Source: Kiritimatiellia bacterium (GTDB taxonomy: Bacteria; Verrucomicrobiota; Kiritimatiellia; RFP12; JBMNHG01). From it: 64,000 nt of DNA. The notes below the pieces were generated by a model. The model made no database searches and was not told the DNA's origin. It saw only the letters and a program-made list of their open reading frames with translations. Positions 10,301 to 26,579 of the stretch are shown piece by piece (position 1 is the first letter of the stretch; each line of letters starts with the position of its first letter). Both the position numbers and the translations under genes were made by a program. The stretch lies in NCBI GenBank assembly GCA_050950285.1, contig JBMNHG010000003.1, forward strand, positions 554,337-618,336, in the 5' to 3' direction.

Positions 10301-13300
10301 GTCCTCCGCGAGGAGCGCATCGTGCGCGACGCCGCCGGCGCGATCCTCTCGCGGGACGTCGCCGAGTCCCGGCGCTTCGGCTGCGGCCGGGACGCGACGC
10401 TCCGCCAGACCTACCACGCCACGCTCGGCCTCGAGCCCGACGGCGCGCCCGGCCTGGTCGAAGACCATGCCTCCTACTGGACGGACGACGCCCACCCCCG
10501 CCGCAACGGACGCCCCCGCCTCGTTTGGGGCGAGTCGCGCCCGTGGAGCTACCAGGCCTGGGACGCCGAGGGCCGCGAAATCCTCCGCCTCGACCCGCTC
10601 GACGGCTCGGCGGCACCCCTGGATTTTGTCGATCAGTCCGATCCGACCGATCTGACCGATCTGTCCGATCACCCCGGCCTGGCCGCCATCGCCACCGTCT
10701 CCGACTACGCGCCGCTGGCGGGCGATTCCAATCCGCTCGCCGCCTTCGATTCCGTCCGCACCGAGTCGCGCCACCTCGTCCGCGACGGCGCGGCGACGTG
10801 CATCGGGCGCACGTGGCACGTCCACACCGTCGGCACGGACACGGTGGGCCGCGCCTTCGCGACCGTGAAGACGGTCCGCGCCTGTTCCCCGGACGCCGCT
10901 TTCGGCGACCCCGGCAACGCCGTCTCGACCATCACCCGCTTCGACGCCGACGCCCCCGGCATCCCGTTGCTCCTGCGCGGCCGCCCGCTCGAATCCACCG
11001 ACGAAGACGGCGTGACCACCGCCTGCGACTACGCCCTCGGCGACTACGACCCCGCCACCCGCACCTTCGCCCCCGGCGGCGCAAAAACCGCGCTCCGCAC
11101 GATCGCCCGGCGCTGGTATCGGTCCAATCCGTCCGATACGTCCGACCTGACCATCCAGGACGCCGCGCACGGCACGACGCTCTACTCCGCAACCCTCCTT
11201 CACGCCACCGGCGCCACGCTCGACTGGCAGGCGCACCTCTACGACGACAAGAACCGCCTCCGCTCCACGCTCTACTCCGACGGCTCCATCTCCACCAACG
11301 CCTACTCCTGCTGCCGCCTGCTCTGGACGCAGGATCGCGACGGCTTCAAGACCCTCCGCTCCGCCGAAACCGGCAAAGACCACCTCTATTACGCCATGGA
11401 AGAGGTGTCGCTTGCCCAGTTGCCCGGATACGGCTACGGCCATCGCACGACGATGCATTTCATGGACGCCCTCGGCAGGGAGACCAACACCGTCGTGACG
11501 GCGGTCGGCGAGCCCGGGGACGCCGTCACCCCCGATTGCGGGACGCTCGGCTTCACGGCTTCCGAAACGACGACGTACCCGGACGGCATCGGCGACCACG
11601 CCGTCCACGTCGATCGGCGCGGGGTTCGCACGGTCACGACGCGCACGTCGCACGCCGACCGCGAGGAGAGCGTCACCCTGACGTTCTCGCCGGCGAACCC
11701 CGACGTTTGCGTCGTGGCGAGCACGAACATCGCCTACCGGAACGGGCGTTCCATCGCCATCCGAAGCTGGGACGGCGGCTGGACGCGCGAAACCTCGTGG
11801 AGCGATTACGCCGCCGACGGAACACGGCGATCCTTCTCCGTCACCGAGGCGTCCGATTCACCGAACGCGGTCACGAATCAAATTTCGCACAGCGATTTCC
11901 TCGGGCGGACGGTGGCGACGCTGAGGCCCGGCGCCGCAGGCGCCTGGCTCGTCACCTCGAACGCCTACGACGGCGCGACCTCGCGCCTGGTTCGCTCGGA
12001 AACGACCGGTCAGCCTGCCACGACCTACCTCTACGACGAGCGCGGCGAGATGGCGGCGACCGTCCAAAGCGGCGTCAAGACCGCGTCTGAGACCCGCTAC
12101 GAGAACATCGCCGGGGCATGGTGGCGGGTGGACGTCCGCAGCACGTCGCGCGAGGGCGTCACCAACGCCGTCGCGACGACCCGCCGGCAGTTGACGGGGC
12201 TTTCCAACGCCCTGCGGAGCCGCACGGTGAACACCGGCCCGAACGGCTCGACGACGACGGAATCGGGCAGCTACAACCCGCAGACCTGCGAGGTGACGAC
12301 GGTTCGCGCAACCGATTCGGCGACGCCGCTTGTCACCGTCTCGAAGTTCGGGCGTTCAATTCGCCGCGAGACGCTGCGCGAAACCGTTTACAACTATTTC
12401 GATCCGCTCGGGCGCGTTGCATACTCGGAAACGCGCGACCCTGAAACGGGCGTCTATTCCCATTTCCGCTGGTCGGGACTCGACGAGTCCGACAACGAGA
12501 CCCGCTACGGCATTTATTATTACGACGACGATCTGCACGTCACTGGATCGAGAACCTTCGACGCCTTCGGCCGCGAAACGTCCCGCACCGACGCCCTCGG
12601 CAACACCGTCACCAACACCTACGACGCCCTCGGGCGTCCGGTTGCCGCCACCGGCGCGGCCTACCCCGTGGCCTACGGATACGACGCCGCCGGCCGCATG
12701 GCCGCCCTCGCCACCGCCCGCGGCAACGCCGCCGGCTTCGCCGCCCTCGCCGTCCAGCTTGCCGGAGGCGCGTCCCTCGCATCCCTTGCGTCCCCTGCGT
12801 CCCTCGATCTCACCGCCTGGAACTACGACCACGCCACGGGGCTTGCCACCAACAAGGTCTACGCCGACGGATCAGCCGTGTCCTACGCCTACACCCCCGA
12901 CGGCAAGCCGCTCCGCACGGCATGGGCGCGTGGAGCGTGGAAGGAGAACGCCTACAACCCCGACGGGCTGTTGACAGGCGTCTCGTACTCCGACGCCACG
13001 CCTGCCGCCGCGCTCGGGTACGATGCCTTCCAGCGCCCCGCCTTTGCCTCCAACGCCGTCGCGCGATACGCCTACCAGAACAGCCACCTCGGCACCGCCA
13101 CCAACGAGACGGCCATGGTTGGCGGCGACACCGCGACCTTGACCCGTACCCTGGACCATCGCCACCGCCTGGCGGAACTGCGCAGCGGCAATGCCGCTCC
13201 CGTCCATTACGGCTACGACTCCGAAAGCCGTCTTTCCACCGTCTCGAATGATGCCTTTTCGGCAAGCTACGCATATACTGATGACGCCTGGGACGCCGGA

Positions 13301-15022
13301 TACACCATCACGCAGACCAACGGGATAGTTCTCTCCCGTACCGTCATCCGCGACCGGTACCGCCGCCACCTTGTCACGATCATCACCAACAGCGTTAACG
13401 GTGTGCCATTGCAGCGGCTTGGCTACACCTACGACATTCTCGACCGAGTTATCAGGCGCAATGCCGACACCTTTGATTACAACGCCAGAAGCGAAGTCAC
13501 GGCGGCGGACATTGGAGCCACCGCCAGCCGCTACGCCTATGATCATATCGGTAATAACATCTGGACGTCATGCAACGGCGCCACTAATAATTACACGGCA
13601 AACAGTCTCAACCAGTACACCAACATCGCCAACATTGCCGGCAACACCCAGCCCGTGTACGACCTCGACGGCAACCTGCTTTCAAACGGCGACTGGTCCT
13701 ACACCTGGGATGCGGAGAACCGCCTCGTCGCCGCCTATTCCAACGGCCTGTGCGTTGTCTCCAACGCCTACGATCATCTTAGCCGCCGCGTGCTGAAATT
13801 CACGCCAACCGCCACGCACACTTGCATCTATGACGGCTGGGATTTGGTGCAAGAGACGATTCAAAATCAGCAGTCCGCAACCACAAATCATTACGTCTGG
13901 GGGCACGACTTCTCCGGTACGCTGCAGGGCGCGGGCGGCGTCGGCGGACTGTTGGCCGTCTCGCTCAATGGTGCATGGTACTTCCCATTCTATGATAATA
14001 ACGGCAACATCATAGCCTATGCTGACGAACAGAGTGCCATCGTGGCGGAATATACCCACGACGCCTTCGGCCGCACCATCGCCAAGTCCGGCACAATGGC
14101 CGATTCATTCCGTCATCGTTTCTCGACCAAGTATTACGACTCCGAGACCGGGCTCTACTACTACGGCTACCGCTTCTACGCGCCGGAACTGATGCGGTGG
14201 CTGAACCGGGATCCGATTGAGGAAAGGGGTGGTGTCAATGTTTACGCCTACTGCCGGAATTCTCCCGTCATCCTCCTTGACTGGCTTGGTCTTCTCGACA
14301 TAGATGTCATGTTCTATGGCACTGCGCTAACCGATATCCTTCCGTTCTTGGGCGGTCGTACGGTTGGCAATTACTACATGGATTTCATCGCAAACAGCCT
14401 TGGCATCGCCAATCGGTACCGGCAGAACCAAGGACAGGGGGCCTCCGGGGCGCGCACCTTTATACTGCGAACTATTGATGTGAATGGAGACATGGTTATT
14501 ACAAAGGATGAAGTACGGGATCTCAACCTGAAACTGATTGGGTACAGTTGGGGTGCCATCACAGCTATCAACATAGCCCACGATTTGAGCAAGTCGAACG
14601 AACGAGTCGAAAGCTACTACTTATGTACAAAGGTTCCTGTCAAACGACTCATCACGATAGATCCAATCACGTTTTTGAACCCTGCGAGATCAATCAAGAA
14701 CAACGTTCAAGTCTTTCGGAACTACTATCAGCAGAAGGGGGGCGAATATCGAGTGTGGCTGAGGCGCACAGATGGCATCGTCGAATTCGAGGACGGGGGC
14801 ACTGTCCTGAGTCAAGGCCTCTGCGGGGCACGCATTGGCGGCATTGACGTTGACGTTAATGCCGTGCAAGTCCGCATTGACACAGACCGCCGAGGCGTTC
14901 AGGTGAGCGACGGCATTCCTGGTGGAATGTTGTACAGTGAGATGTGGAGTTACGGTGACTTTATCAACCACGACATGGTTCCCTGGTACGTGAAGGCGGA
15001 TGTCATCAATGACTATTTCTAA
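7397..15022 (+). CDS. RHS/YD-repeat polymorphic toxin, 2541 aa: N-terminal TM segments, DxDxDG (TSP3-like) Ca-binding repeats, RHS core, C-terminal alpha/beta-hydrolase-like tip
   Basis: YD repeats; RHS-associated core FSTKYYDSETGLYYYGYRFYAPELMRWLNRDPIEERGG; PVILLDWLGL cleavage-type motif; low-GC tip with IGYSWG. Confidence 0.93.
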   Translation: MGLLQSIRHWMFAGACLLAGVPLLFCLGAWAGTSPGLRRLFRALGDRFRSLSPSVRAVLSALLVVATLHGVPKVPPGGNALFHGPPPAGMVSGGLPARPARGPSSGPRLTAGQYRAGVALARVATNPSPALASVPSNAVVHAPWTRYGVAEDTFWLPATNWSFTLGTNRVGGLHVSSSGTLSFGWPKGSPRARRMPDGSGLDFLAPLQTSLGIVPPAGRFWHAPTASNSLLLAWQDVFAGRDAGLPVTFQAELFPSGDFVYRYDLSRLSATNAPPATNWVVGAQHGGGGETFAFGGTGVLVHGLELHWRAFGMLDPDVADHDGDGLSTYDEVMVHGTDPRLPDTDLDGVLDGAEVAAGTSPLLRDTDGDGLVDGSDPDPLSPTPSDDLDGDGIPDACETAKFGGTNAVDSLDFDPGGTGFPLSTKIAAGMDPFAEASAPTNLAWNLASLKLFDAFRCDLPADGTNRVYERTFTIDRKGGWQQYFLSASSNAPAGWSLDGMALEWADSEGGSGTATASPPDDSLWLPVSTNALQLTLALRATSTNSTCPQPLYLLAWAPGVLVDGAGAAAEINGARCQAVEWTGGGTSVGVRYDFSNRPCRAAPSEMEQAALLDPFPGEARLAFTPNDAFTGGSLAAKAPGIYDVPGCTIAPAPPPARRGARGAGGRDDPGEGPVERLLFFDPRIAYGDGRHGGCGTTLFFDAATGDYEPASDYPLDSRCLREGWRQDATGGHPCDCRAEIGYGDPALAAYFDETVEDDGLRATGTIFFDGRPVWSGEAIHRVGERCHDPFYDECGDCASGCADGDCDGLEGDGLGSLAFRIPLGIPRDGQVSGFLWFRATEPLLVAPATFNLLARDDAAVAESAAGGTRTIACSDARGRTVVVEPIAHGVRITVRKTAGDELEHVWEIANVGGSPRQVAFKKISRRDNVMRDVVYSYRGDGEWACFDNIAQTSEQVLRTDTLDDGPHGVLREERIVRDAAGAILSRDVAESRRFGCGRDATLRQTYHATLGLEPDGAPGLVEDHASYWTDDAHPRRNGRPRLVWGESRPWSYQAWDAEGREILRLDPLDGSAAPLDFVDQSDPTDLTDLSDHPGLAAIATVSDYAPLAGDSNPLAAFDSVRTESRHLVRDGAATCIGRTWHVHTVGTDTVGRAFATVKTVRACSPDAAFGDPGNAVSTITRFDADAPGIPLLLRGRPLESTDEDGVTTACDYALGDYDPATRTFAPGGAKTALRTIARRWYRSNPSDTSDLTIQDAAHGTTLYSATLLHATGATLDWQAHLYDDKNRLRSTLYSDGSISTNAYSCCRLLWTQDRDGFKTLRSAETGKDHLYYAMEEVSLAQLPGYGYGHRTTMHFMDALGRETNTVVTAVGEPGDAVTPDCGTLGFTASETTTYPDGIGDHAVHVDRRGVRTVTTRTSHADREESVTLTFSPANPDVCVVASTNIAYRNGRSIAIRSWDGGWTRETSWSDYAADGTRRSFSVTEASDSPNAVTNQISHSDFLGRTVATLRPGAAGAWLVTSNAYDGATSRLVRSETTGQPATTYLYDERGEMAATVQSGVKTASETRYENIAGAWWRVDVRSTSREGVTNAVATTRRQLTGLSNALRSRTVNTGPNGSTTTESGSYNPQTCEVTTVRATDSATPLVTVSKFGRSIRRETLRETVYNYFDPLGRVAYSETRDPETGVYSHFRWSGLDESDNETRYGIYYYDDDLHVTGSRTFDAFGRETSRTDALGNTVTNTYDALGRPVAATGAAYPVAYGYDAAGRMAALATARGNAAGFAALAVQLAGGASLASLASPASLDLTAWNYDHATGLATNKVYADGSAVSYAYTPDGKPLRTAWARGAWKENAYNPDGLLTGVSYSDATPAAALGYDAFQRPAFASNAVARYAYQNSHLGTATNETAMVGGDTATLTRTLDHRHRLAELRSGNAAPVHYGYDSESRLSTVSNDAFSASYAYTDDAWDAGYTITQTNGIVLSRTVIRDRYRRHLVTIITNSVNGVPLQRLGYTYDILDRVIRRNADTFDYNARSEVTAADIGATASRYAYDHIGNNIWTSCNGATNNYTANSLNQYTNIANIAGNTQPVYDLDGNLLSNGDWSYTWDAENRLVAAYSNGLCVVSNAYDHLSRRVLKFTPTATHTCIYDGWDLVQETIQNQQSATTNHYVWGHDFSGTLQGAGGVGGLLAVSLNGAWYFPFYDNNGNIIAYADEQSAIVAEYTHDAFGRTIAKSGTMADSFRHRFSTKYYDSETGLYYYGYRFYAPELMRWLNRDPIEERGGVNVYAYCRNSPVILLDWLGLLDIDVMFYGTALTDILPFLGGRTVGNYYMDFIANSLGIANRYRQNQGQGASGARTFILRTIDVNGDMVITKDEVRDLNLKLIGYSWGAITAINIAHDLSKSNERVESYYLCTKVPVKRLITIDPITFLNPARSIKNNVQVFRNYYQQKGGEYRVWLRRTDGIVEFEDGGTVLSQGLCGARIGGIDVDVNAVQVRIDTDRRGVQVSDGIPGGMLYSEMWSYGDFINHDMVPWYVKADVINDYF

Positions 15023-15519: not shown

Positions 15520-17493
15520 ATGCAAAAACGGATTAAAGACACTCCAGTTGGCAACAGCCACCTCGGCACCGCCACCAACGAGACGGCGACGGTCGGCGGC
15601 GACACCGCGACCCTGGCCCGCACCCTGGACCACCGCCACCGCCTGGCGGAACTGCGCAGCGGCAATGCCGCCCCCGTCCATTACGGCTATGACTCGGAAA
15701 GCCGGCACTCCGCCGTCTCCAACACCGCCTTCCGCGCCACCTATGCCTACACCTCCGACGGCTGGGATGCGGGGTATTCGGTGGCCTTGACGAATGGCGT
15801 CGTACTTGCCCGCAACCTGACCCGCGACCCCTACCGCCGCAGTCTGGTAAAAGCCATCACCAACAGCGTCAGCGGCGTGCCGTACAACCCGCTGGTCTAC
15901 ACCTACGACCTGCTTAACCGTGTCACTTCACGCAACACGGACACCTTCGATTACAACGCCAGAAGCGAAGTCACGGCGGCGGACATTGGAGCCCACACCA
16001 ACCGCTACGCCTTCGACAACATAGGCAACGCGCTGTGGGCCTCGCTTAACTCCGTCACGAACATCTACACCGCCAACGAACTGAACCAGTATTTCCTGAT
16101 TTCCAATCATGTCAATCATGTCAATCCTGTCCAAATTTCTCCCGTATACGATTTAGACGGCAATATGACGTGGGACGGGCGTTTCAACTACACGTATGAT
16201 GCGGAAAACCGCCTTGCCGCCGCCTATTCCAACGGCCTGTGCGTAGTCTTCAACGCCTACGATCATCTTAGCCGCCGCGTGTTGAAAATCTCACGCGGAG
16301 GCACGGAGACACGGGGATTTGTCTACGACGGCTGGCTGCCGGTTCTCGAAATCGTCGCCACCGCCGCGGGAGTGACCACCAACCACTACGTCTGGGGACG
16401 CGATTTGTCTGGAAGCATGCAAGGCGCGGGCGGCGTCGGCGGCTTGCTGGCGGTACAGATGGGTAGCGCATGGTACTTCCCGTTCTACGACAACAACGGG
16501 AACATCACGGCCTATGTGAACGAACAGGGCGCAATCGTGGCGGAATATACCTACGATGCCTTCGGCCGCACCATAGAGGCAACGGGTCTGCTTGCCGACG
16601 CCTTCCGCCACCGTTTCAGCACCAAGTACTACGATGCCGAAACCGGTTTCTACTACTATGGATATCGTTTCTACTCGCCAACGCTCCATCGCTGGCTCAA
16701 TCGTGATCCCATAGGAGAACAAGGCGGGTTAAATCTCTATGGCTTCGTTTACAATGCGCCAACACGTCATATTGACCGACTAGGGTTGTTAGTCCGCAGT
16801 GATATTGAGAAGGGACGTGTATTATACTCATGTAATTGTGGCTGGATTGATATTGTTCATTCCAAGGGAGCTGTGCCAAACGCCGCCGCTATATTAAGCG
16901 GTGTCGTGGGAAATCTAGGCGGAACGCCATCCGAGATAACCTTTGCCCTGACTCAAACTCTTGGAGGGCTTCAGTTTGGTTACGCAATCAACATTCCCGA
17001 AACGCCCAAGAAATTTTCTGAAAAAGATGCCATCGAAATAGCCCTTGGCATTTGGATGCATGCCAATGTTACTTTTGAACAATGGCAAGGTGGTACGGGA
17101 GCCGAGCTGTTTAAAAAGTCTTCGTTCTCCGTCGAAGACATGCCGAGTGACTATCTCGCCATGATGATGGCTGTCCGTGATCGTTATGGTCCAGGCAAAG
17201 GCATTTCTTGGTCCGAGATCAAGTCGCAATGCCATTTCCTTGATATTGAGGATTCTCTCTGGGTTTACAATTGTGGAATTGGTCCAAAAAAGAATCACTT
17301 TCAAACTCCAGAACTTTGGGAGAGCAGGCCAACGCTTGAATGGTGCTGGCCTTGTCAACGAGTAATGTCATTAACAGGTGGGCAGGTGTTTCCCAAAATA
17401 CCGGACATTTTCAGCGCTTATAATCCTGCTGCCCAAGTCGACATGTTTAAACAAACGATGAAAAAAGACATCAACCCCATTCCCGGGCTTTGA
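15520..17493 (+). CDS. Orphan RHS-core + toxin-tip cassette 1 (tip DUF4056-like)
   Basis: Nucleotide homology to the main rhs starts at 15553 (equivalent to 13079); core ends IDRLGL; distinct low-GC tip. Confidence 0.85.
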   Translation: MQKRIKDTPVGNSHLGTATNETATVGGDTATLARTLDHRHRLAELRSGNAAPVHYGYDSESRHSAVSNTAFRATYAYTSDGWDAGYSVALTNGVVLARNLTRDPYRRSLVKAITNSVSGVPYNPLVYTYDLLNRVTSRNTDTFDYNARSEVTAADIGAHTNRYAFDNIGNALWASLNSVTNIYTANELNQYFLISNHVNHVNPVQISPVYDLDGNMTWDGRFNYTYDAENRLAAAYSNGLCVVFNAYDHLSRRVLKISRGGTETRGFVYDGWLPVLEIVATAAGVTTNHYVWGRDLSGSMQGAGGVGGLLAVQMGSAWYFPFYDNNGNITAYVNEQGAIVAEYTYDAFGRTIEATGLLADAFRHRFSTKYYDAETGFYYYGYRFYSPTLHRWLNRDPIGEQGGLNLYGFVYNAPTRHIDRLGLLVRSDIEKGRVLYSCNCGWIDIVHSKGAVPNAAAILSGVVGNLGGTPSEITFALTQTLGGLQFGYAINIPETPKKFSEKDAIEIALGIWMHANVTFEQWQGGTGAELFKKSSFSVEDMPSDYLAMMMAVRDRYGPGKGISWSEIKSQCHFLDIEDSLWVYNCGIGPKKNHFQTPELWESRPTLEWCWPCQRVMSLTGGQVFPKIPDIFSAYNPAAQVDMFKQTMKKDINPIPGL

Positions 17494-18203: not shown

Positions 18204-18779
18204 ATGCAAAGTAAAAACGAACAGACAATTATGTGCCTAACTGCCGCTGTTGGGGCTCTTTTTTTGGTGCCGGGATGCCTGGCGAAACAGAAGTCTTCCG
18301 TCGCGGTTGAACAGCATCGCCAAAGCATTTGTCTCAACAAAAAAACCACAAACTGGTTTCTCGACCCCTCATTGATTTACTCTGCGCTCGTTGTACGGAA
18401 CTCCGCTGATACGAACGGTTGCATTGCAGCTTTTACATACGACATGTCTATTGGAGCTCCATATGCTCATTGGATAGTCTATAAACCTCAAGAAATAGTT
18501 ATAATGGTTGAAATGACCTTAGGCGTCATGGAAGCCTTGCCAGAAGGAAGGATGGGTGAAATGACTTTGCTTTCTGTTCCAAACTCAATGAATCGTCGCA
18601 TCGTCTTTTCAGATACTTTGACCAACAAGGACATAGCTGCTGACTTTAATTATACAGAGAAAGATATTCCGAAGTGCTTGCAAAGCAATACGGAACCTCT
18701 TTCCGAAGACGACCCTTTTCAAAAGCATTCCGGTAAAAATTCTTCTGATACTGCTGCTGACATATGGCCAACGGATTAA
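18204..18779 (+). CDS. Orphan immunity-like lipoprotein
   Basis: MQSKNEQTIMCLTAAVGALFLVPGC lipoprotein-like signal; low GC. Confidence 0.6.
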   Translation: MQSKNEQTIMCLTAAVGALFLVPGCLAKQKSSVAVEQHRQSICLNKKTTNWFLDPSLIYSALVVRNSADTNGCIAAFTYDMSIGAPYAHWIVYKPQEIVIMVEMTLGVMEALPEGRMGEMTLLSVPNSMNRRIVFSDTLTNKDIAADFNYTEKDIPKCLQSNTEPLSEDDPFQKHSGKNSSDTAADIWPTD

Positions 18780-19598
18780 AACATCTGCTCACTATCGGCT
18801 CCATCGTCTGCACGAATGCCGCCTTCCGCGCCACCTACGCCTATACCTCCGACGGCTGGGATGCGGGGTATTCGGTGAACTTGACGAATGGCGTCGTACT
18901 TGCCCGCAACCTGACCCGCGACCCCTACCGCCGCCACCTTGTCACGGTCATCACCAACAGCGTCAGCGGCGTGCCGCACAATCCGCTGGCCTACACCTAC
19001 GACCTCCTCGACCGCGTCACGTCACGAAACGCCGACACCTTCGATTACAACGCCAGAAGCGAAGTCACGGCGGCCATCATCCAGCCCGCCCACACCAGCC
19101 GGTACGCCTACGACAACATAGGCAACGCGCTGTGGGCCTCGCTTAACTCCGTCACGAACATCTACACCGCCAACGAACTGAACCAGTATTTCCTGATTTC
19201 CAATCATGTCAATCATGTCAATCCTGTCCAAATTTCTCCCGTATACGATTTAGACGGCAATATGACGTGGGACGGGCGTTTCAGCTATGCGTATGATGCG
19301 GAAAACCGCCTCGTCGCCGCCTATTCCAACGGCCTGTGCGTAGTCTTCAACGCCTACGACCACCTGAGCCGCCGCGTGTTGAAAATCTCACGCGGAGGCA
19401 CGGAGACACGGGGATTTGTTTATGACGGCTGGCTGCCGGTTCTCGAAATCGTCGCCACCGCCTCGGGAGTGACCACCAACCACTACGTCTGGGGCAAAGA
19501 CCTATCCGGCACGCTCCAGGGCGCGGGCGGTGTCGGCGGACTCCTGGCGGTACAGATGGGCGACGCATGGTATTTCCCGTTCTACGATAATAACGGCA
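18764..19598 (+). CDS. Orphan RHS cassette 2, exon 1 (upstream of the group II intron)
   Basis: Near-identical to the cassette 1 core; stops at YDNNG-A where the intron begins. Confidence 0.85.
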
Positions 19599-21530
19599 GT
19601 GCGCCAAGCGAAGCTCGGCGCTTCTTGCGGGGTGGAAGTCCCCGCCGAGTAAGGACCAGCCATCCACTCGTACCGAGTGTTGGCACTATGGAAGAGGAGT
19701 CGAATCCGAATGAAGTAGTGTAAGCGTACACAGGGAACTTCGCAGGCCGCAGGGAGGATGCACCCTCCCGAAGCGGTTCAGCCCCGTTAATTGATCATGC
19801 GCAGGGCGACATGTTTGCCGACATGGAAGCCAGCAACAAGGACGCGCAACCGGCTTGCGTCCGGTGACTGCGCCGGGGTCTACGGCGCGCGGCATGCGGA
19901 GAGAGAAGCGAACGGGAACTTGGGAGACCCGCCGCCGTCCGCGTCCGCGAGGGCGCGGTAGCGGCCGCCGAGCCGGAAGGGAAGGCGGCGCGACGCGGCG
20001 GCGGGAGTCAGACCGCCCCATAGTACTCCGAGACGGGCGAGCCGGTCACACGGGGAAGGGGGCGGCGGGGCTGCGAAGCCCGCAAAGGGAACAGGAAAGA
20101 TGGACACGACAGGCTGTCAAACACTGCAAACCTCACTGCGGGGAATAGCGGATCGGGCGCGACGCGACCCGAAGGCGCGATTCCGCGACGTGTACAGGCT
20201 GCTCAACGAGGCGAACCTGCGCGAATGCTTCCGGGCGTTGCGAAGGGACGCCGCGCCGGGGATTGACCGGGTGACGTTCGACGACTACGAACGCGACCTC
20301 GACGCCAACCTCGCGGCGTTGGTCGAGCGGCTCAAGCACAAGCGGTACCACGCCCGACTGGTGCGCAGGGTGAACATTCCAAAGGGGGGCGGGAAACTGC
20401 GTCCCCTCGGAATCCCTGTGCTGGAGGACAAACTTCTGCAAATGGCCGTGGCGAAGGTGCTAACGGCGATCTACGAAGAGGACTTCCTGCCGGCGAGCCG
20501 GGGCTACCGTCCCGGCGGCGACGCCCGCGAGGCCAGCCGCGAATGGGCGGCGAGGCTCGGCGGGGGGAGCTATGCGTGGGTGGTCGATGCGGACATCAAG
20601 GGCTTCTTCGAGCACGTCGATCACGACTGGATGCTCAGGATGCTGGAGCTTCGCATCGACGACAAGCCGTTTCTGCGGCTGGTGCGCAAATGGCTCAAGG
20701 CGGGGGTGCTCGAAACGGACGGACGGGTGCTGCATCCGACGGAGGGGACGCCCCAAGGCGGGGTGGTCTCGCCGGTGCTGGCGAACGTCTACCTGCACTA
20801 CGCGCTGGATCTCTGGTTCGACCGCGTGGTCAGGAGGACGACGCCGGGCCGATGCGCGATGCTGCGCTACGCCGACGACTTCGTGGTCGCCTTCGAGCGG
20901 CGCGAGGACGCGGAACGCTTCCTTGGGGAACTGCCCGGGCGACTGGGCAAGTTCGGCCTGGAGCTGTCGGGGGAGAAGACGCGGCTGGTGCGCTTCGAGC
21001 GGGGCAACCCGTCGGGCGACAACGGCGGCTTCGACTTCCTGGGGTTCCAGTACCACTGGGAGCGTACGCGAAACGGACGCTGGAAGGTGCAGCGCCGGAC
21101 GGCTCCGAGCCGTCTCCGGCGGTCGGTGGAACGCTTCGCCGAGTGGATCAAGGCCAACCGGGGCGAACGCCTGCCCGTTCTCATGGAACGGCTGGGGCGC
21201 AAGCTCGCGGGGTACTGGCAGTACTACGGCGTGACGGGCAACGGGCGCAGCCTGTGCAAGTTCTGGAGGCAGGTGGTGGCTGGGCTCTACAAGTGGCTCA
21301 ACCGCAGAAGCCAGAAGCGGGGCTTGACCTGGGTCCGTCTCAATGCGATCCTCAAGCGCCACGGGGTGCCGGGACCGCGGATCACCGAGAGCGGGCAGAT
21401 GCTGTTTTCCTTCATGGGGGCGCGTTGAAGACCGAGTGCAAAGCGAGCAGTCCCGAAGAGCCCGGTGCGGGAATTCCGCACGCCGGGATCCGTGCGGGGG
21501 GCGCCCGGCAACGGGCGTCCCTACCGCGAT
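19599..21530 (+). mobile_element. Group II intron (RT-encoding, IIB-like, no endonuclease domain), 1932 nt
   Basis: 5' GTGCG; domain V GAGCCCGGTGCGGGAATTCCGCACGCCGGGATC; domain VI ending CCCTACCGCGAT with bulged A at -8. Removal restores GGC A|AT ATC ACG GCC TAT (GNITAY). Confidence 0.95.
20100..21428 (+). CDS. ltrA: Group II intron reverse transcriptase/maturase
   Basis: APGIDRVT, IPKGGGKLRPLGIP, DADIKGFF, GTPQGG, RYADD, FDFLGF, domain X GYWQYYG; no C-terminal HNH. Confidence 0.95.
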   Translation: MDTTGCQTLQTSLRGIADRARRDPKARFRDVYRLLNEANLRECFRALRRDAAPGIDRVTFDDYERDLDANLAALVERLKHKRYHARLVRRVNIPKGGGKLRPLGIPVLEDKLLQMAVAKVLTAIYEEDFLPASRGYRPGGDAREASREWAARLGGGSYAWVVDADIKGFFEHVDHDWMLRMLELRIDDKPFLRLVRKWLKAGVLETDGRVLHPTEGTPQGGVVSPVLANVYLHYALDLWFDRVVRRTTPGRCAMLRYADDFVVAFERREDAERFLGELPGRLGKFGLELSGEKTRLVRFERGNPSGDNGGFDFLGFQYHWERTRNGRWKVQRRTAPSRLRRSVERFAEWIKANRGERLPVLMERLGRKLAGYWQYYGVTGNGRSLCKFWRQVVAGLYKWLNRRSQKRGLTWVRLNAILKRHGVPGPRITESGQMLFSFMGAR

Positions 21531-22534
21531 ATATCACGGCCTATGTTGACGAGAACGGCACCATCGTGGCCGAGTACACATACGACGCCTTCGGCCGCAC
21601 CATCGCCGCCACTGGCTCCATGGCCGACACCTTCCGCCATCGCTTCAGCACGAAGTACTATGAAACGGAAACCGGGCTCTACTACTACGGCTACCGTTTC
21701 TACGCGCCGAAGCTGATGCGGTGGCTGAACCGGGATCCGATTGATGAGGAGGGTGGGCTAAACCTCTATGGTTTCTGCGGAAATGATAGTGTGAACCGGC
21801 TGGATGCGATGGGAATGGCAACCGTCAAGGTTTACGCATGGAAACCAACAACCCTCTGGGAGAAAATCAAGGGAGAGGGCAACTACAATATGGTCGAGAT
21901 ACATTCAGCAGAAGAAGTTCCTGTTGAATACGGTAAGTTTTCTGGGAACACTTGGGGGGCTTTCGACGATAATCATCTCGTAGTTGCCGCTTGCGATTGT
22001 GCCGACAGCATAGACATCTTTCCAACGATAATCATCCGAGCGGGATTACCGAAGCAGGGTGTTCCAGGCGCAAAATATCTTTTCCGAAGGCATCAGGCGT
22101 GTGGTGGGGAAGTTACATCAGGTGGGGGGTATGTTTTGCCTAGCGGACAACTCATTGAAGGTTCCGTTCTTGCACATGAGAGAGGGCATGCACAAGCGTT
22201 TTTCGAATTGGTGCTGCCTCGTTTTCGAAAGGCTGTGGAAAATCACTTTCCTGGAAAACTAAAGAGCAAAGATACCAAGGAGGTTCGACGGCTCTTTCTG
22301 CAAGCACGTAAAGACACGATGAAAGAGCATATTGAAATGGTTTTCAAACGTGAATTTGAATGGTATCGCCGTAACGGATTCACTATCACTGAACCTGCGT
22401 CGCCGGGAGGTTTTTATGAAGCAACACCACTAGCATCCCATAGGCTTGCCGAAATCACTCCTGCCTTCCCCCATTGGAAGTCAGCGCACGCGCTCAAGAC
22501 GGGAGCGTCGGGCCGGATTGAAAAAAAGGGCTGA
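21531..22534 (+). CDS. Orphan RHS cassette 2, exon 2: core end + HExxH metallopeptidase-like tip; C-terminus altered by the IS
   Basis: ITAYVDENG...RLDAMGM, then low-GC tip with AHERGH. The native end YEATR* is replaced by read-through into the IS from 22428. Confidence 0.85.
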
Positions 22535-24001
22535 CCTCCCGGCCGTCTGCCTGTAGCCTACAGGCATTATGAAAAAAAAAGCGACCAAGGCGCGTAAACG
22601 CGCAACCAAGAGGCCAGCGAGAACATCGTACACCACCCTGCGCCAGATCGTCCAGTGGATTCCCGCGGGATTGCCGGACAAGATCGCGCGCGACATCGGG
22701 GCGGACATCCGCGGATTCTCCTGCGCCAGCCATGTGCTGGCGCTGCTCTACGGCCATATCGCCCGCGCGGGCAGCCTGAACGAGATCTGCGACGCGGCCC
22801 GGCTGCACGAGCCGGAGCTGAACCGCATCCGGGGCGCGACGGCCCCGAAGCGCAACACCTTCTCCAACGCCAACCGGAGGCGCGACCCGGAGATCGCGGA
22901 GCGGCTCTACTGGGAGGTGTTCGAGCACCTCCGGACCATCTGCCCGTCCTTCACGCAGTACAAGAAGCACAAAGGCTTCATCTTCCGCCTGAAGCGCGGG
23001 ATATTCGCCATCGACTCGACCACGCTGAAGCTCACGCTCGACTCGATCGACTGGGCCAGGCACCGCCGGAAGAAGGCCGCCGCCAAAACCCACATGGCCC
23101 TCGACGTCGGCAGCAGGCTGCCGACGTTCGCGGTCGTGGAGGACGCCGCGCACCACGACTCGACGCGGGCGGACGCGCTGTGCGCGGGGCTGAAGGACGG
23201 CGACGTGCTGCTGGCGGACCGCGCCTACGTCGACTTCCTCTTCCTGCACGGACTCGCCGCGCGCGGCATCTTCTTCGTCCTGCGGGAGAAGGAGAACATG
23301 GACTTCGAGGTGCTGGAGGAGAGAGGGCATCCGGACCGGCGCATACTCAAGGACCAGACCATACGCCTGCGGGGCAGGCTGACGGCGGGAAAGTACCCCG
23401 GGCCCCTGCGCCGCGTCGCCGCCGTCGTCGAGGTGGACGGGCAGGATCGGGAAATGACGTTCATCACCAACCATTTCGCGTGGAGCCCCCGCACCGTCTC
23501 CGAGCTCTACCGCGCCCGGTGGGTCATCGAGTCGTTCTTCAAGGAACTCAAGCAGACGCTCCAGCTCAAGGATTTCGTCGGGTACAACGAGAACGCGGTC
23601 AAGTGGCAGGTCTGGGTCGGGCTGCTGGCGCATCTGCTGCTGCGCTTCCTCAAGCACGTCTCGGAATGGGGACTGAGCTTTTCCCGGCTCGCCGGGGTCG
23701 TCAGGTCCGCCGTCTGGATGAAGATCGACCTGCTCGACGCCCTGCGGAAGTATGGGACAGCAGGCGGCCCAAAGCGCCCTGTAATTTCCGGGAAACAGCT
23801 CTATTTCCAAGGATTCGAGCCATTCGCGAGCCGGCCCGTGGGATAGCACATGCCCCAAAACCCCTGTTTTCGGGCATCCGGGCCGATCGCGCAGGCAAAC
23901 ACGTTTTCCGGGAACGCCTTTGAAATCGCGATAAATCCCTGCAAATCAATGGGGGAAAGGGGGCAATATGCCCGTTTTCAGCCGCCTATGGGATGCTAGT
24001 G
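22428..24001 (+). mobile_element. IS4-family insertion sequence, 1574 bp
   Basis: Perfect 18-bp TIR CACTAGCATCCCATAGGC (22428-22445 / 23984-24001); 9-bp TSD AAGCAACAC (22419-22427 / 24002-24010). Confidence 0.95.
22569..23846 (+). CDS. IS4-family DDE transposase
   Basis: AIDSTT, ADRAYVD, LYRARWVIESFFKELKQ (YREK motif). Confidence 0.95.
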   Translation: MKKKATKARKRATKRPARTSYTTLRQIVQWIPAGLPDKIARDIGADIRGFSCASHVLALLYGHIARAGSLNEICDAARLHEPELNRIRGATAPKRNTFSNANRRRDPEIAERLYWEVFEHLRTICPSFTQYKKHKGFIFRLKRGIFAIDSTTLKLTLDSIDWARHRRKKAAAKTHMALDVGSRLPTFAVVEDAAHHDSTRADALCAGLKDGDVLLADRAYVDFLFLHGLAARGIFFVLREKENMDFEVLEERGHPDRRILKDQTIRLRGRLTAGKYPGPLRRVAAVVEVDGQDREMTFITNHFAWSPRTVSELYRARWVIESFFKELKQTLQLKDFVGYNENAVKWQVWVGLLAHLLLRFLKHVSEWGLSFSRLAGVVRSAVWMKIDLLDALRKYGTAGGPKRPVISGKQLYFQGFEPFASRPVG

Positions 24002-24442
24002 AAGCAACACGGTAAAATCATCAGAATTACAGCCATGTTTCTACTGCTAATCGTCACGCACATTTTGGTTTACGTCGCTGGGATTTATCGCTTTTATAAA
24101 AAAGATTTCTGCAAGTCGGAAACGGGCATGCTCCCAATAGCCTTGGCGACAAATGCGGAATTCATGGCAGCATGTGAAACAATCCGAAACTCAACAAATA
24201 CGGTTGAAGTATACAACGCTGCAACTCTTTTTGTTCCCCCTCTTTCAAAATTCCTACAGGAGCATCCCGATGGTATCCATATTGCCGTTATAATTAATTT
24301 ACTCGGATGGAAGGAACCGGTTATGGGGCATAATATGATCTACTTTTTGAAACAAGAGGACTGCCAAGTTTACTATATGAAATTTACTTCTTTGCGCCCT
24401 CACCATATAAATTCTGTTTCTATTGGCATCGGCGAGATGTGA
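23999..24442 (+). CDS. Putative immunity protein for cassette 2 (start codon now supplied by the IS end)
   Basis: The original ATG AAG CAA CAC lies at 22416; after the IS it reads GTG AAG CAA CAC GGT. N-terminal TM helix; low GC. Confidence 0.7.
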   Translation: MKQHGKIIRITAMFLLLIVTHILVYVAGIYRFYKKDFCKSETGMLPIALATNAEFMAACETIRNSTNTVEVYNAATLFVPPLSKFLQEHPDGIHIAVIINLLGWKEPVMGHNMIYFLKQEDCQVYYMKFTSLRPHHINSVSIGIGEM

Positions 24443-24557
24443 CTATAGAGTCCGGCAAGCCGTGCTGGATTGAGATTAGGGGTTCCAAGCAGATTTCGGA
24501 TTCTGGCAACTGCTGCAACTATAAGGACTCTTCACCTGACGAGCGGGGGTGGTACTG

Positions 24558-24869
24558 ATGGTCTATCGTCAAGTTCGGATGATTCTATTGGGCTTCATGT
24601 TTTGCCTGTCGGGTTGTCGCAATGAACATGCAGTACAACCCGACAAGGAAATTGGCTTGGCGGCACTGCAAGACTATTGCCTCGGCGAACGATTGACTGT
24701 CGAGGATTTTGGCCATGCCCGGGTTTACACTGATGCAAAATATGACGTTTGTGTCGAATACATAACAAAACCCAATGTCGTTCCGCGGCATGTCTTGCTT
24801 CTATTCATTAAGGATGGTCGCATTGTTGAAAAACAACGCGATATTCAAGACGTGTCGGTGCTACAATGA
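24558..24869 (+). CDS. Orphan immunity-like lipoprotein
   Basis: MVYRQVRMILLGFMFCLSGC lipobox; TGATG-coupled to an upstream stub. Confidence 0.65.
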   Translation: MVYRQVRMILLGFMFCLSGCRNEHAVQPDKEIGLAALQDYCLGERLTVEDFGHARVYTDAKYDVCVEYITKPNVVPRHVLLLFIKDGRIVEKQRDIQDVSVLQ

Positions 24870-25376
24870 CTCCAACCATGTACATGGCTTTTCGCCCGTT
24901 GCTCGTCAATAATCTTTGGGTGTCGGTCAGCGCCGTCACGAACATCTACACCGCCAACGAACTGAACCAGTATTTCCTGATTTCCAATCATGTCAATCAT
25001 GTCAATCCTGTCCAAATTTCTCCCGTATACGATTTAGACGGCAATATGACATGGGACGGGCGTTTCAGCTATGCGTATGATGCCGAGAACAGGCTTGCCG
25101 CCGCCTATTCCAACGGCCTGTGCGTAGTCTTCAACGCCTACGACCACATGAGCAGACGCGTGTTGAAAGTCACCCCAACCGCGACGCACACCTACCTCTA
25201 TGACGATTGGAATCTGGTGCAGGAAACAATTTCAACCGCATCCGGCACGACAACCAACCATTACGTTTGGGGACGTGATTTGTCTGGAAGTATGCAGGGT
25301 GCCGGCGGCGTCGGCGGCTTGCTGGCGGTACAGACGGGCGGCATGTGGTACTTCCCCTTCTATGATAACAACGGAA
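24866..25376 (+). pseudogene. Orphan RHS cassette 3 fragment (5' exon of the second intron; rest of core and tip deleted)
   Basis: Homology to cassettes 1/2 from about 24932; ends at YDNNG-A. Confidence 0.85.
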
Positions 25377-26073
25377 GTGCGCCAAGCGAAGCTCGGCGCT
25401 TCTTGCGGGGTGGAAGTCCCCGCCGAGTAAGGACCAGCCATCCACTCGTACCGAGTGTTGGCACTATGGAAGAGGAGTCGAATCCGAATGAAGTAGTGTA
25501 AGCGTACACAGGGAACTTCGCAGGCCGCAGGGAGGATGCACCCTCCCGAAGCGGTTCAGCCCCGTTAATTGATCATGCGCAGGGCGACATGTTTTCCGTC
25601 ATGGAAGCCAGCAACAAGGACGCGCAACCGGCTTGCGTCCGGTGACTGCGCCGGGGTCTACGGCGCGCGGCATGCGGAGAGAGAAGCGAACGGGAACTTG
25701 GGAGACCCGCCGCCGTCCGCGTCCGCGAGGGCGCGGTAGCGGCCGCCGAGCCGGAAGGGAAGGCGGCGCGACGCGGCGGCGGGAGTCAGACCGTCCCATA
25801 GTACTCCGGGACGGGCGAGCCGATCACACGGGGAAGGGGGCGGCGGGGCTGCGAAGCCCGCAAAGGGAACAGGAAAGATGGACACGACAGGCTGTCAAAC
25901 ACTGCAAACCTCACTGCGGGGAATAGCGGGTCGGAAGTCGGGCGCGGTTCCCTGTCAGGGGAACGCGACGGCGACCGAGTGCAAAGCGAGCAGTCCCGAA
26001 GAGCCCGGTGCGGGAATTCCGCACGCCGGGATCCGTGCGGGGGGCGCCCGGCAACGGGCGTCCCTGCCGCGAT
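25377..26073 (+). mobile_element. ORF-less group II intron derivative, 697 nt
   Basis: Near-identical to 19599-21530 except that 1278 nt of the RT ORF (20152-21429) are replaced by a 43-nt hairpin (25930-25972). Domain V is intact; ends CCCTGCCGCGAT. Confidence 0.93.
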
Positions 26074-26141
26074 ACGGCGTACTTGGAAATGCTCAGGATA
26101 CGAGAAGGACCCCTGCCTACCTCCTCCGAAGGAGTTCTGAT

Positions 26142-26579
26142 ATGACTTCGCATTGTTTTTCGGTTGTCCAGCTGGCGAGTTCGTTGCCCATGATACTACT
26201 CCTGTTCAGCTCTTTGGGGTGCAAGAGCAGGGAGTACATCGCGCGAGAGCCTGCCGTCCATGAAATGTTGCGGGAAATGCGTGTTCCTGCGATTGACATG
26301 CGAGAAGCGCATCTTCAGGATGTGGTCGAGTATCTCAACGCCGCGCTAAATGAATACGGTCTAGGCGAAGCAAGAAAAGAAACGATCATCGTATTCGAGT
26401 GTCCCGCGCACTTGTCTCGGCGAAAACTGAATCCCGTCCCAATTGCCAAGGACAAATCGATTGACACTGGGATGACGAAGATCGTGAGTGTCATGGATAT
26501 TGCAGATGAAGTCTGCTCGCGCGCAAACGTCAACCTCGTCATCAAGAGCAACCGCGCAATCTTCACCGGCAAGCGATGA
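26142..26579 (+). CDS. Orphan immunity-like lipoprotein with an STN/secretin-N-like domain
   Basis: GGAG RBS; LLLFSSLGC lipobox; VPAIDMREAHLQDVVEYL...VSVMDIADEVCSRANVNLVI pattern. Confidence 0.55.
   Translation: MTSHCFSVVQLASSLPMILLLFSSLGCKSREYIAREPAVHEMLREMRVPAIDMREAHLQDVVEYLNAALNEYGLGEARKETIIVFECPAHLSRRKLNPVPIAKDKSIDTGMTKIVSVMDIADEVCSRANVNLVIKSNRAIFTGKR

Follow-up and report, generated by a model that had tools for sequence, protein, structure and literature searches.

Why do two nearly identical group II introns begin at the same nucleotide of the same protein motif in two different orphan cassettes of an RHS toxin locus? The locus lies in a stretch of 64,000 nucleotides (nt) from a Kiritimatiellia bacterium (GCA_050950285.1, contig JBMNHG010000003.1, 554,337-618,336), which is the whole DNA analysed here and is called the window (G000:C3:554337-618336). 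Its source genome, G000, comprises 4.05 Mb assembled in 12 contigs, of which C2, C3, C6, C7 and C8 are cited below. We refer to the intron at 19599-21530 as intron A, to the one at 25377-26073 as intron B or copy B, and to their orphan RHS hosts as cassettes A and B. The answer that we favor, and hold to be quite probable, is that an RNA-guided intron family whose protein lacks an endonuclease homes into a codon string at three in-phase YD positions of RHS genes, that orphan cassettes serve as its refuges, and that deletion between intron copies has since rearranged some of the exons.

Two group II introns in RHS cassettes

Intron A is a full-length group II intron of 1932 nt and intron B an internally deleted one of 697 nt, both on the plus strand. 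The two match the Rfam family RF02005 (group-II-D1D4-6) over the full model, positions 1 to 225, at 19635-19888 with 106.1 bits and at 25413-25666 with 105.9 bits, the gathering score being 49. The predicted folds of both, the covariation of the exon-binding sites (EBS) for intron A and the blastn alignment for intron B are in line with this assignment. Both introns start with GTGCG (19599 and 25377) and end with ...CCGCGAT (21530 and 26073), which is the GUGYG/AY boundary pattern, and the other genomic copies show the same boundaries. The sequence directly 5' of both is ...TAYGATAAYAACGGMA, coding for FPFYDNNG plus the first A of an Asn codon. The introns are 99.1% identical, and the last 200 nt of their 5' exons are 68% identical. 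The family match, the boundaries read from the sequence and this identity support the initial annotation in placing two related introns at the same nucleotide of YDNNG^N (^ marks the insertion point) in two orphan cassettes.

Intron A encodes a reverse transcriptase (RT)/maturase of 442 amino acids (aa) at 20100-21428 on the plus strand, in which the YADD motif is present. The protein matches TIGR04416 at aa 38-403 (343.9 bits, cut-off 300) and RVT_1 (8.1e-33), and it matches GIIM at 2.8e-4, below the cut-off of that model. Pfam reports only RVT_1 and GIIM and no endonuclease (En) domain, for which a protein of 442 aa is too short. The closest solved proteins in a PDB search are generic group II intron RTs (about 1e-39), and the closest plasmid-borne RTs are about 42-44% identical. 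Judged by these matches, the intron belongs among the En-minus introns, whose intron-encoded protein lacks the HNH endonuclease domain, and both elements of the window are group II introns of ordinary retroelement anatomy.

The centroid fold of the 3' 85 nt of intron A predicts a hairpin resembling domain 5 (D5) with a 2-nt bulge at 21458-21490, followed by domain 6 (D6) at about 21494-21527 with a bulged UA. The predicted bulged branch A is position 21523, 8 nt from the 3' end. A typical D5 is a hairpin of about 34 nt with an AGC triad and a 2-nt bulge, and the bulged A of D6 typically stands 7-8 nt from the 3' end. By our own reading, the G of the triad in the D5-like hairpin faces an A and not a U. 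Copy B retains intron nt 1-558 and the last 101 nt. Its RT open reading frame (ORF) is deleted, about 40 nt of unrelated filler stand at 25935-25972 where the RT region was, and the bulged A of D6 is replaced by a G at 26066. Class C (IIC) introns have a shorter D5, insert behind terminator hairpins or attC sites and lack EBS2. The insertions inside coding YD motifs, the candidate EBS2 described below and the full-length D5 with its 2-nt bulge speak against this class.

The main RHS gene of the locus (7397-15022, plus strand) is full-length and intron-free and encodes 2541 aa with matches to RHS_repeat (PF05593), TIGR01643 and TIGR03696 (aa 2222-2299), covering the YD repeats and the RHS-associated core. 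A tblastn search with this protein aligns the 5' exon of cassette A (18764-19598, plus strand) to aa 1950-2203 and its 3' exon (21531-22534, plus strand) to aa 2205-2346, so that intron A interrupts a single Asn codon directly behind its first base. The 3' exon comprises the remaining RHS core and then a C-terminal tip. Its frame is open from 21533 to 22534, with TIGR03696 at aa 17-95 (80.8 bits) and HERGH, an HExxH motif, at 22175-22189. Excision of intron A would restore the frame with this HExxH tip, just as had been claimed. The ORF 18764-19723 runs into intron A, and the stop proposed for the unspliced frame, at 19723, is where it ends. The tip itself matches no Pfam family, and its PDB matches are at chance level (E 0.13).

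Intron copies and their sites in the genome

A blastn search with intron A finds intron sequence at 11 places in G000, namely, 8 full-length copies, the internally deleted copy B, 1 copy truncated at a contig end and a 387-nt fragment. The RT ORF is uninterrupted at 442 aa in 6 copies (98-100% identical), split between frames in 2 and cut by the contig end in 1; no further group II RT family was found in G000. Over their first 550 nt the copies are 91.7-99.8% identical, while 5' flanks of the same type are 68-95% identical and those of different types cannot be aligned. The 387-nt fragment (C3:185471-185854, minus strand) covers intron nt 20-406 at 90% identity and lies away from all RHS homology; what it once targeted is no longer readable in this old remnant.

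The 5' junction is readable in nine copies, and eight of these follow the RHS YD-repeat codon string GAY AAY NNN GGN A^. Four belong to FP(F/L)YDNNG (type 1, the core) and four to RYA(F/Y)DNIG (type 2), which lies 474 nt upstream of type 1 in the repeat unit; the ninth follows another intron copy. On the 3' side, three copies continue into a type 1 exon (NI(T/I)AY...), two into a type 2 exon (NALWTSLN...) and two into an exon of a third type (VYDLDG^NLL(T/S)NG.WSYTWD), while one abuts another intron copy and two (copy B and C8:823032) have a 3' flank that is not RHS. All three site types share the DNA form GAY NNN NNN GGN A^A and an identical codon phase. A target restricted to the core was rejected because of the four insertions at RYA(F/Y)DNIG^N and the two 3' exons from the VYDLDG^N site. 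As read from these junctions, what the intron recognises is not the core as such but the D-N-x-G^N codon string, present at three YD positions per cassette, and we propose GAYAAYNNNGGNA as the target string of the intron. The earlier idea of a lineage specialised on the RHS core is thus kept in part: homing into RHS stands, on eight of nine junctions, the EBS1 covariation and relatives at YD or core motifs, but the core gives way to a string found at three positions.

The only intron directly behind another one is found in a head-to-tail pair on C8 (821093-823031 and 823032-824963) with the junction ...CCGCGAT^GTGCGCC.... Identity to intron A is 96.8% for the upstream copy, whose RT frame is split, and 99.1% for the downstream copy, whose RT is intact. 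An identical tandem junction is present in a metagenome contig pair (loci L046/L049) and in another genome of the class (L069), which points to insertion at an already occupied 5' junction on several occasions and not to chance. At C2:684460, only about 35 nt of RHS sequence are kept in the 5' exon, and the next upstream RHS homology ends 1.7 kb away (C2:682702-684425); something else appears to have inserted directly upstream of this intron.

The genome offers many such sites. A tblastn search maps no fewer than 11 full-length RHS genes in G000, coding for about 2300-2540 aa and 64-97% identical to the gene of the window, each trailed by an array of orphan cassettes, a repertoire that is very large for 4.05 Mb. 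A census by protein motif over G000 gives about 85 matching sites, with 4 occupied and 34 empty for type 1, 4 occupied and 24 empty for type 2, and 0 occupied and 19 empty for type 3. A looser DNA pattern has 145 matches, of which the 8 RHS sites are the only occupied ones. Within the window, the main RHS gene has an empty core-type site between 14006 and 14007 and an empty VYDLDG^N site at about 13676/13677. The intron-free orphan RHS cassette 1 (15520-17493, plus strand, 657 aa, TIGR03696 77.2 bits) is empty at 16027/16028 (RYAFDNIG^N) and 16501/16502 (FPFYDNNG^N), and the 5' exon of cassette A is empty at 19124/19125 and 19259/19260 and occupied at 19598/19599.

At the resolved intron loci (C2, C3, C6 and C8), the introns sit in the last RHS-homologous segments of the arrays, 4.6-22 kb past the end of the full-length gene, and at none of these four loci does an intron lie within the full-length RHS gene. 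From this distribution, expressed genes would seldom receive insertions or would lose them, and orphan cassettes would be the sites where they are tolerated. GC skew was too noisy to orient the intron loci relative to replication. Two empty copies of the 23-nt string TTTGTCGCGAGCTTTGTCGGTA^A... are found at C3:798503 and C8:831831. The same string is the occupied target of a related intron in another genome, G034; the G034-type target is a conserved repeat that is present in G000 and unused by the G000 intron.

Probable target recognition by the intron RNA

The EBS1 hairpin of intron A is GACAUG-UUUGCCGA-CAUGG (19810-19825), in which EBS1 is UGCCGA at 19816-19821, facing the intron-binding site (IBS) 1 CGGCA in the exon. 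In intron B, EBS1 has become UUCCGU and faces the fully complementary ACGGAA, so that copy B matches its own exon at 6 of 6 positions despite the loss of its RT and its branch A. The copies C2:688273 and C7 pair UGCCUA with UAGGCA, and C8:821093 pairs UGCCGA with UUGGUA, including wobbles. Relatives in other genomes show the pairs UGGGGU/CCCCA, UACCGA/UCGGUA, CGAGGA/UCCUCG and UCCCGA/CGGGA.

Over 17 unique combinations of exon and loop, a mean of 5.29 of 6 EBS1-IBS1 positions are paired, as opposed to 4.30 in shuffles, and 0 of 5000 shuffles reach the observed value; this test is inflated by the relatedness of the copies, from which the variety of distinct pair types, 2-5 at every position, is independent. 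The covariation of EBS1 with the 5' exon across the 17 combinations argues for RNA-guided homing and not for duplication of the introns as passengers of their cassettes. On this pairing evidence we conclude that the intron copies probably arrived by RNA-guided homing into RHS genes.

A candidate for EBS2 is the 12-nt internal loop at 19787-19798, which is unpaired both in the Rfam consensus and in the fold. There, AAUUG(A)UC faces GA/YAA(U) at -13 to -8 of the exon, and in relatives AAAGC(A)UC faces GA/GCUUU and AAGCG(A)UC faces GA/CGC(U). Under this model 4.19 of 7 positions are paired, as opposed to 3.37 in shuffles, with 0 of 3000 shuffles reaching the observed value. We tentatively assign the EBS2 function to this loop.

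Relatives in other genomes

Close relatives of the intron occur in 2 of 60 other genomes of the same order, where they are 83-94% identical over the aligned part of a 502-base 5' query. The search covered one further genome of the genus (92% complete, 170 contigs), which gave no intron match. A search with the first 23 nt of the intron returned 12 loci in 6 assemblies, which are metagenome-assembled genomes of Kiritimatiellia, Lentisphaerae and Chthoniobacteraceae, and 18 metagenome loci. Eleven of these 30 loci have a 5' flank of YD type or RHS-core type, in six site types (FDYDVFG^, FTFDADG^, TPTYDADG^, YVYDANG^, LDYDSFG^ and YYGFRY^). The RHS homology of the flank is confirmed by blastx for 7 of the 11 and by Pfam RHS_repeat for 1, and for 3 it is given by the motif alone. 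Ten further loci carry one of two G034 strings, two are of the G040 type, two stand in tandem behind another intron and five have other 5' flanks, including one in an IS66 transposase and one in a DUF4838 protein. For genome G061 both junctions were recovered, and the joined exons restore the RHS core motif YYGFRY^YDP in phase 1.

Within the same class, 10 of 400 further genomes hold relatives, 9 of them newly found and 71-87% identical. Their flanks include one that is YD-repeat-like, two beside RHS cores, one tandem copy and one that is transposase-like by our own reading. From the flanks read so far, RHS genes are a recurrent but not an exclusive home of this intron clade.

Introns with non-cognate exons

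Intron A, C2:684460 and C7 have cognate exon pairs, that is, both exons belong to one site type. In C6, a type 1 (core) 5' exon is followed by a type 2 (NALWTSLN) 3' exon, and C8:817490 shows the reverse, with a type 2 5' exon and a type 1 3' exon. At C2:688273, a type 2 (RYAFDNIG) 5' exon is followed by the type 3 3' exon NLLTNGVWSYTWD. None of these three exon combinations is found at an intron-less site in G000. The single-nucleotide polymorphisms (SNPs) are mosaic among the intron copies, which fits exchange between copies. Reading these sequences together, we take the most likely origin of the non-cognate pairs to be a deletion between two intron copies that stood as direct repeats in one array. 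Since all sites are in phase 1, each non-cognate product would read in frame after splicing. The suggestion that intron copies provide homology for recombination therefore appears right, with three copies having non-cognate RHS exon pairs.

Comparison with known systems

RmInt1 of Sinorhizobium meliloti is a mobile En-minus group II intron that homes into the multi-copy element ISRm2011-2. The G000 family resembles introns of this type in its RT/maturase without endonuclease, its EBS-IBS-guided targeting, its many near-identical copies and its truncated or ORF-less copies. In contrast to them, its target is a conserved in-frame codon motif of toxin genes at three positions and not an insertion sequence (IS), a terminator or an intergenic site. 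In Thermosynechococcus elongatus, a group II intron family spread to many sites with diverging EBS sequences. The expansion within one genome and the EBS changes that track new targets are similar in G000, whereas the sites here are paralogues of one protein motif, and only genomes other than G000 show retargeting to unrelated sites.

RHS genes are known to diversify by C-terminal displacement, in which they recombine with orphan tips and the homology used is the RHS core itself. The G000 loci share the arrangement of a main RHS gene followed by arrays of orphan core-tip cassettes with common core homology. They depart from the known model in that the 1.9-kb intron is a further tract of homology, longer than the core and more uniform, and in that products of recombination within the intron are in frame only if the intron is spliced out.

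The intron C.te.I1 of Clostridium tetani is described in passages of one report as having one D1-D4 and behind it repeated D5/D6 units, each ahead of a different 3' exon, in a surface-protein array, which yield alternative C-termini by splicing; these passages give it no RT gene and no EBS2 and have only D5/D6 repeated, with isoforms seen in RNA (PMC3919590). Like C.te.I1, the G000 elements repeat intron sequences in an array of secreted or surface-protein genes with different C-terminal exons after each repeat. Unlike it, the G000 repeats are whole mobile introns with RT genes. A C.te.I1-type assignment was rejected, as the repeats are whole introns and not serial D5/D6 units, and copy B retains domains 1 to 3.

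According to passages of a review, the En domain is absent from the classes C, D, E and F, which use replication forks to prime reverse transcription; the review places most bacterial introns outside housekeeping genes and describes bacterial group II introns as residents of intergenic sites and other mobile DNA that avoid coding genes (PMC4424553). A chloroplast rhs-like ORF is interrupted by a 267-bp intron, the type of which is not stated in the excerpt concerned (PMC4487195). A full-text literature search, which had subscription journals outside its coverage, found no published group II intron that targets Rhs/YD genes. Its matches to intron and Rhs were RNA helicases (RHs) or incidental co-mentions.

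Weighing the explanation

As a mechanism, an En-minus intron family would base-pair through EBS1, and probably through the EBS2 loop, with the sense-strand codons GAY AAY NNN GGN A^A. This D-N-x-G^N string recurs in RHS YD repeats at three positions per cassette, which would provide the sites counted in G000, and the intron would have colonised 8 or more of them, each time in codon phase 1 and in sense orientation. For the further steps we infer, with the general En-minus rule as the guide for the first, that retrohoming would be primed at replication forks, that splicing would restore the RHS frame, that insertions would persist in distal orphan cassettes as at the four resolved loci, these cassettes being probably silent and hence tolerant, and that recombination between direct intron repeats may have deleted the intervening DNA and left single introns with exons of different YD positions or cassettes.

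Several observations weigh against this explanation. No Rfam family besides RF02005, hence no D5/D6 family, was matched at E values up to 1. In the site census, 77 motif-matching sites are empty, among them the core-type site of the main gene, which lies 5.6 kb upstream and shares all 13 nt, GATAATAACGGCA, with the site occupied in cassette A; empty sites in such numbers, including an identical one, mean that homing is rare or counter-selected. Of the 6 EBS1 positions, only 4 in C6 and 5 in C8:817490 are paired with the exon now present, and a second register of EBS2 scores about equally well above the shuffles. Outside G000, 19 of the 30 loci found with the first 23 nt are not at YD motifs, and all 10 readable 5' flanks in the two same-order genomes are non-RHS strings, namely, TTTGTCGGTA in four cases, CGTCCTCG in three and a GTCCCYA-like string in three, one of the last lying 25 nt past an RHS core fragment. 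Lastly, the chimeras C6 and C8:817490 mirror each other and are both close to a contig end; an assembler misled by the 1.9-kb repeat could have produced them.

Close homologues at unrelated sites are what the initial annotation had named as telling against an RHS-directed lineage, and they do exist in the two same-order genomes, but the EBS1 loops at those non-RHS sites have changed to match them. Taken with this pairing, the non-RHS insertions are retargeting and not a lack of specificity.

Among the alternatives, the one that survives best, though in our estimate unlikely, accepts homing and takes the non-cognate pairs as assembly errors through a 1.9-kb repeat of about 99% identity, with no intron-mediated rearrangement. 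It draws on C6 and C8:817490 being exact reciprocals within about 20 kb of contig ends. However, the assembly holds no reciprocal partner of C2:688273, the 3' flanks of copy B and C8:823032 are not RHS, and 7-kb RHS genes that are about 90% identical were resolved in the 12 contigs, which would suggest long reads.

It is also quite unlikely that the copies are relics, decayed in pseudogenised cassettes, which neither splice nor move and record a past burst. The loss of the RT gene and branch A in copy B, the split RT frames of two copies, the truncated or foreign exons of several copies and the 77 vacant sites would agree with decay, but the six uninterrupted RT ORFs are 98-100% identical, the copies reach 99.8% identity over their first 550 nt, and intron A keeps D5, D6 and branch A in its predicted fold.

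We regard as very improbable that a single ancestral insertion was copied along with the cassettes and kept uniform by gene conversion, without any RHS-directed homing. RHS cassettes are massively duplicated in G000, and the mosaic intron SNPs imply that conversion between copies occurs. Such passenger duplication is nevertheless at odds with two occupied positions 474 nt apart plus 3' exons from a third position, with an EBS1 that shifts with the local exon (UUCCGU/ACGGAA and UGCCUA/UAGGCA), and with relatives elsewhere that occupy further YD motifs with matching EBS1.

Least credible of all is a host use by analogy to C.te.I1, in which the introns would join an RHS shell to alternative tips in RNA through alternative splice sites or trans-splicing, for although that precedent, the identical 13-nt IBS2-IBS1 strings of the main gene and cassette A, the single codon phase at all sites and the arrays with several copies followed by different 3' exons would suit it, the copies resemble ordinary RT-encoding mobile introns, several of the 3' exons encode no toxin tip, and we know of no precedent for a 5' splice site several kb from its intron.

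RHS-directed homing followed by deletion between copies leaves a related claim to consider, that the introns serve as in-frame joints that shuffle RHS cassettes, a crossover between intron copies, or splicing that employs an identical IBS string upstream or the 3' part of an intron downstream, joining the shell to another core-tip module with the frame restored only by splicing. We think this a doubtful role for them.

Public sequencing runs

At least half of the words of the window are contained in 14 public DNA runs, from anaerobic digesters, bioreactors, biogas fermenters and wastewater, and 7-13% of them in six RNA runs. Three RNA runs and one DNA run were compared with the window, all as contigs. 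The RNA contigs cover only relatives of the intron that are 92-95% identical and unspliced, one of them in the CGTCCTCG^ context, and none spans the exons of cassette A. The DNA run X1 contains joints of 19598 to 21531, which were rejected as an empty allele of cassette A; they are intron-less paralogues, of which C2:241395 is an example, its 13-nt recognition string and 3' flank being identical to those of cassette A.

A contig of 1984 nt from an RNA library (run X17, record 27) holds a complete intron relative with 108 differences, unspliced, between ...TACGACCTCCACGGCA and ACCGCGTCGTCGCCGACGAG, which is a YDLHG^NRVVADE context. It may be a transcript or contaminating DNA.

Surroundings of the introns in the window

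Between the tip of cassette A and cassette B lies an IS4-type DDE transposase gene (22569-23846, plus strand, PF01609 2.6e-27). It is followed by the small ORFs 23993-24442 and 24549-24869, and the latter starts with a lipoprotein-like signal by our own reading of the sequence. The 5' exon of cassette B (24866-25376, plus strand) corresponds to aa 2053-2203 of the main RHS protein by tblastn, aligns with cassette A and ends in ...FPFYDNNG plus A. The 3' flank of intron B (26074-26579, plus strand) has no RHS match by tblastn and only a weak NCBIfam match below the cut-off. A small gene starts there at 26143, and its product, again by our own reading, begins with a lipoprotein-like signal.

A repetitive segment, CAATCATGTCAATCATGTCAATCCTGTC, which encodes NHVNHVNPV, is common to three cassettes (19196-19228, 16099-16131 and 24980-25012) and scores highest in the region for promoter-like matches, which lie on the minus strand. 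It is precisely here, at 19201-19232, that the DNA contigs from run X1 diverge, so that the segment looks like a variable insert in the RHS repeat. In a promoter and terminator scan from the main gene to the cassettes, terminator-like sites are at chance level (16, as opposed to 13.4 +/- 4.5 expected).

Implications

The findings describe a bacterial group II intron lineage that would use a conserved codon motif of a multi-copy toxin family as its homing site. Dozens of targets per genome are available in the RHS family, whose orphan cassettes, being probably silent, would be refuges for the intron. The lineage is also a natural case in which the covariation between EBS and target is readable across genomes. 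For annotation, it means that RHS cassettes split by an intron will be called truncated genes. The lineage as a whole is relevant to research on group II introns and on polymorphic toxins alike.

Introns at phase-identical positions of a modular gene family are the arrangement that the idea of exon shuffling needs, and three copies already resemble its products. Intron-promoted in-frame domain exchange and splicing-dependent recruitment of toxin tips thus become testable in bacteria. If the introns did act as in-frame joints, this would be a case of a group II intron that shuffles exons, or splices toxin tips in alternative ways, in bacteria.

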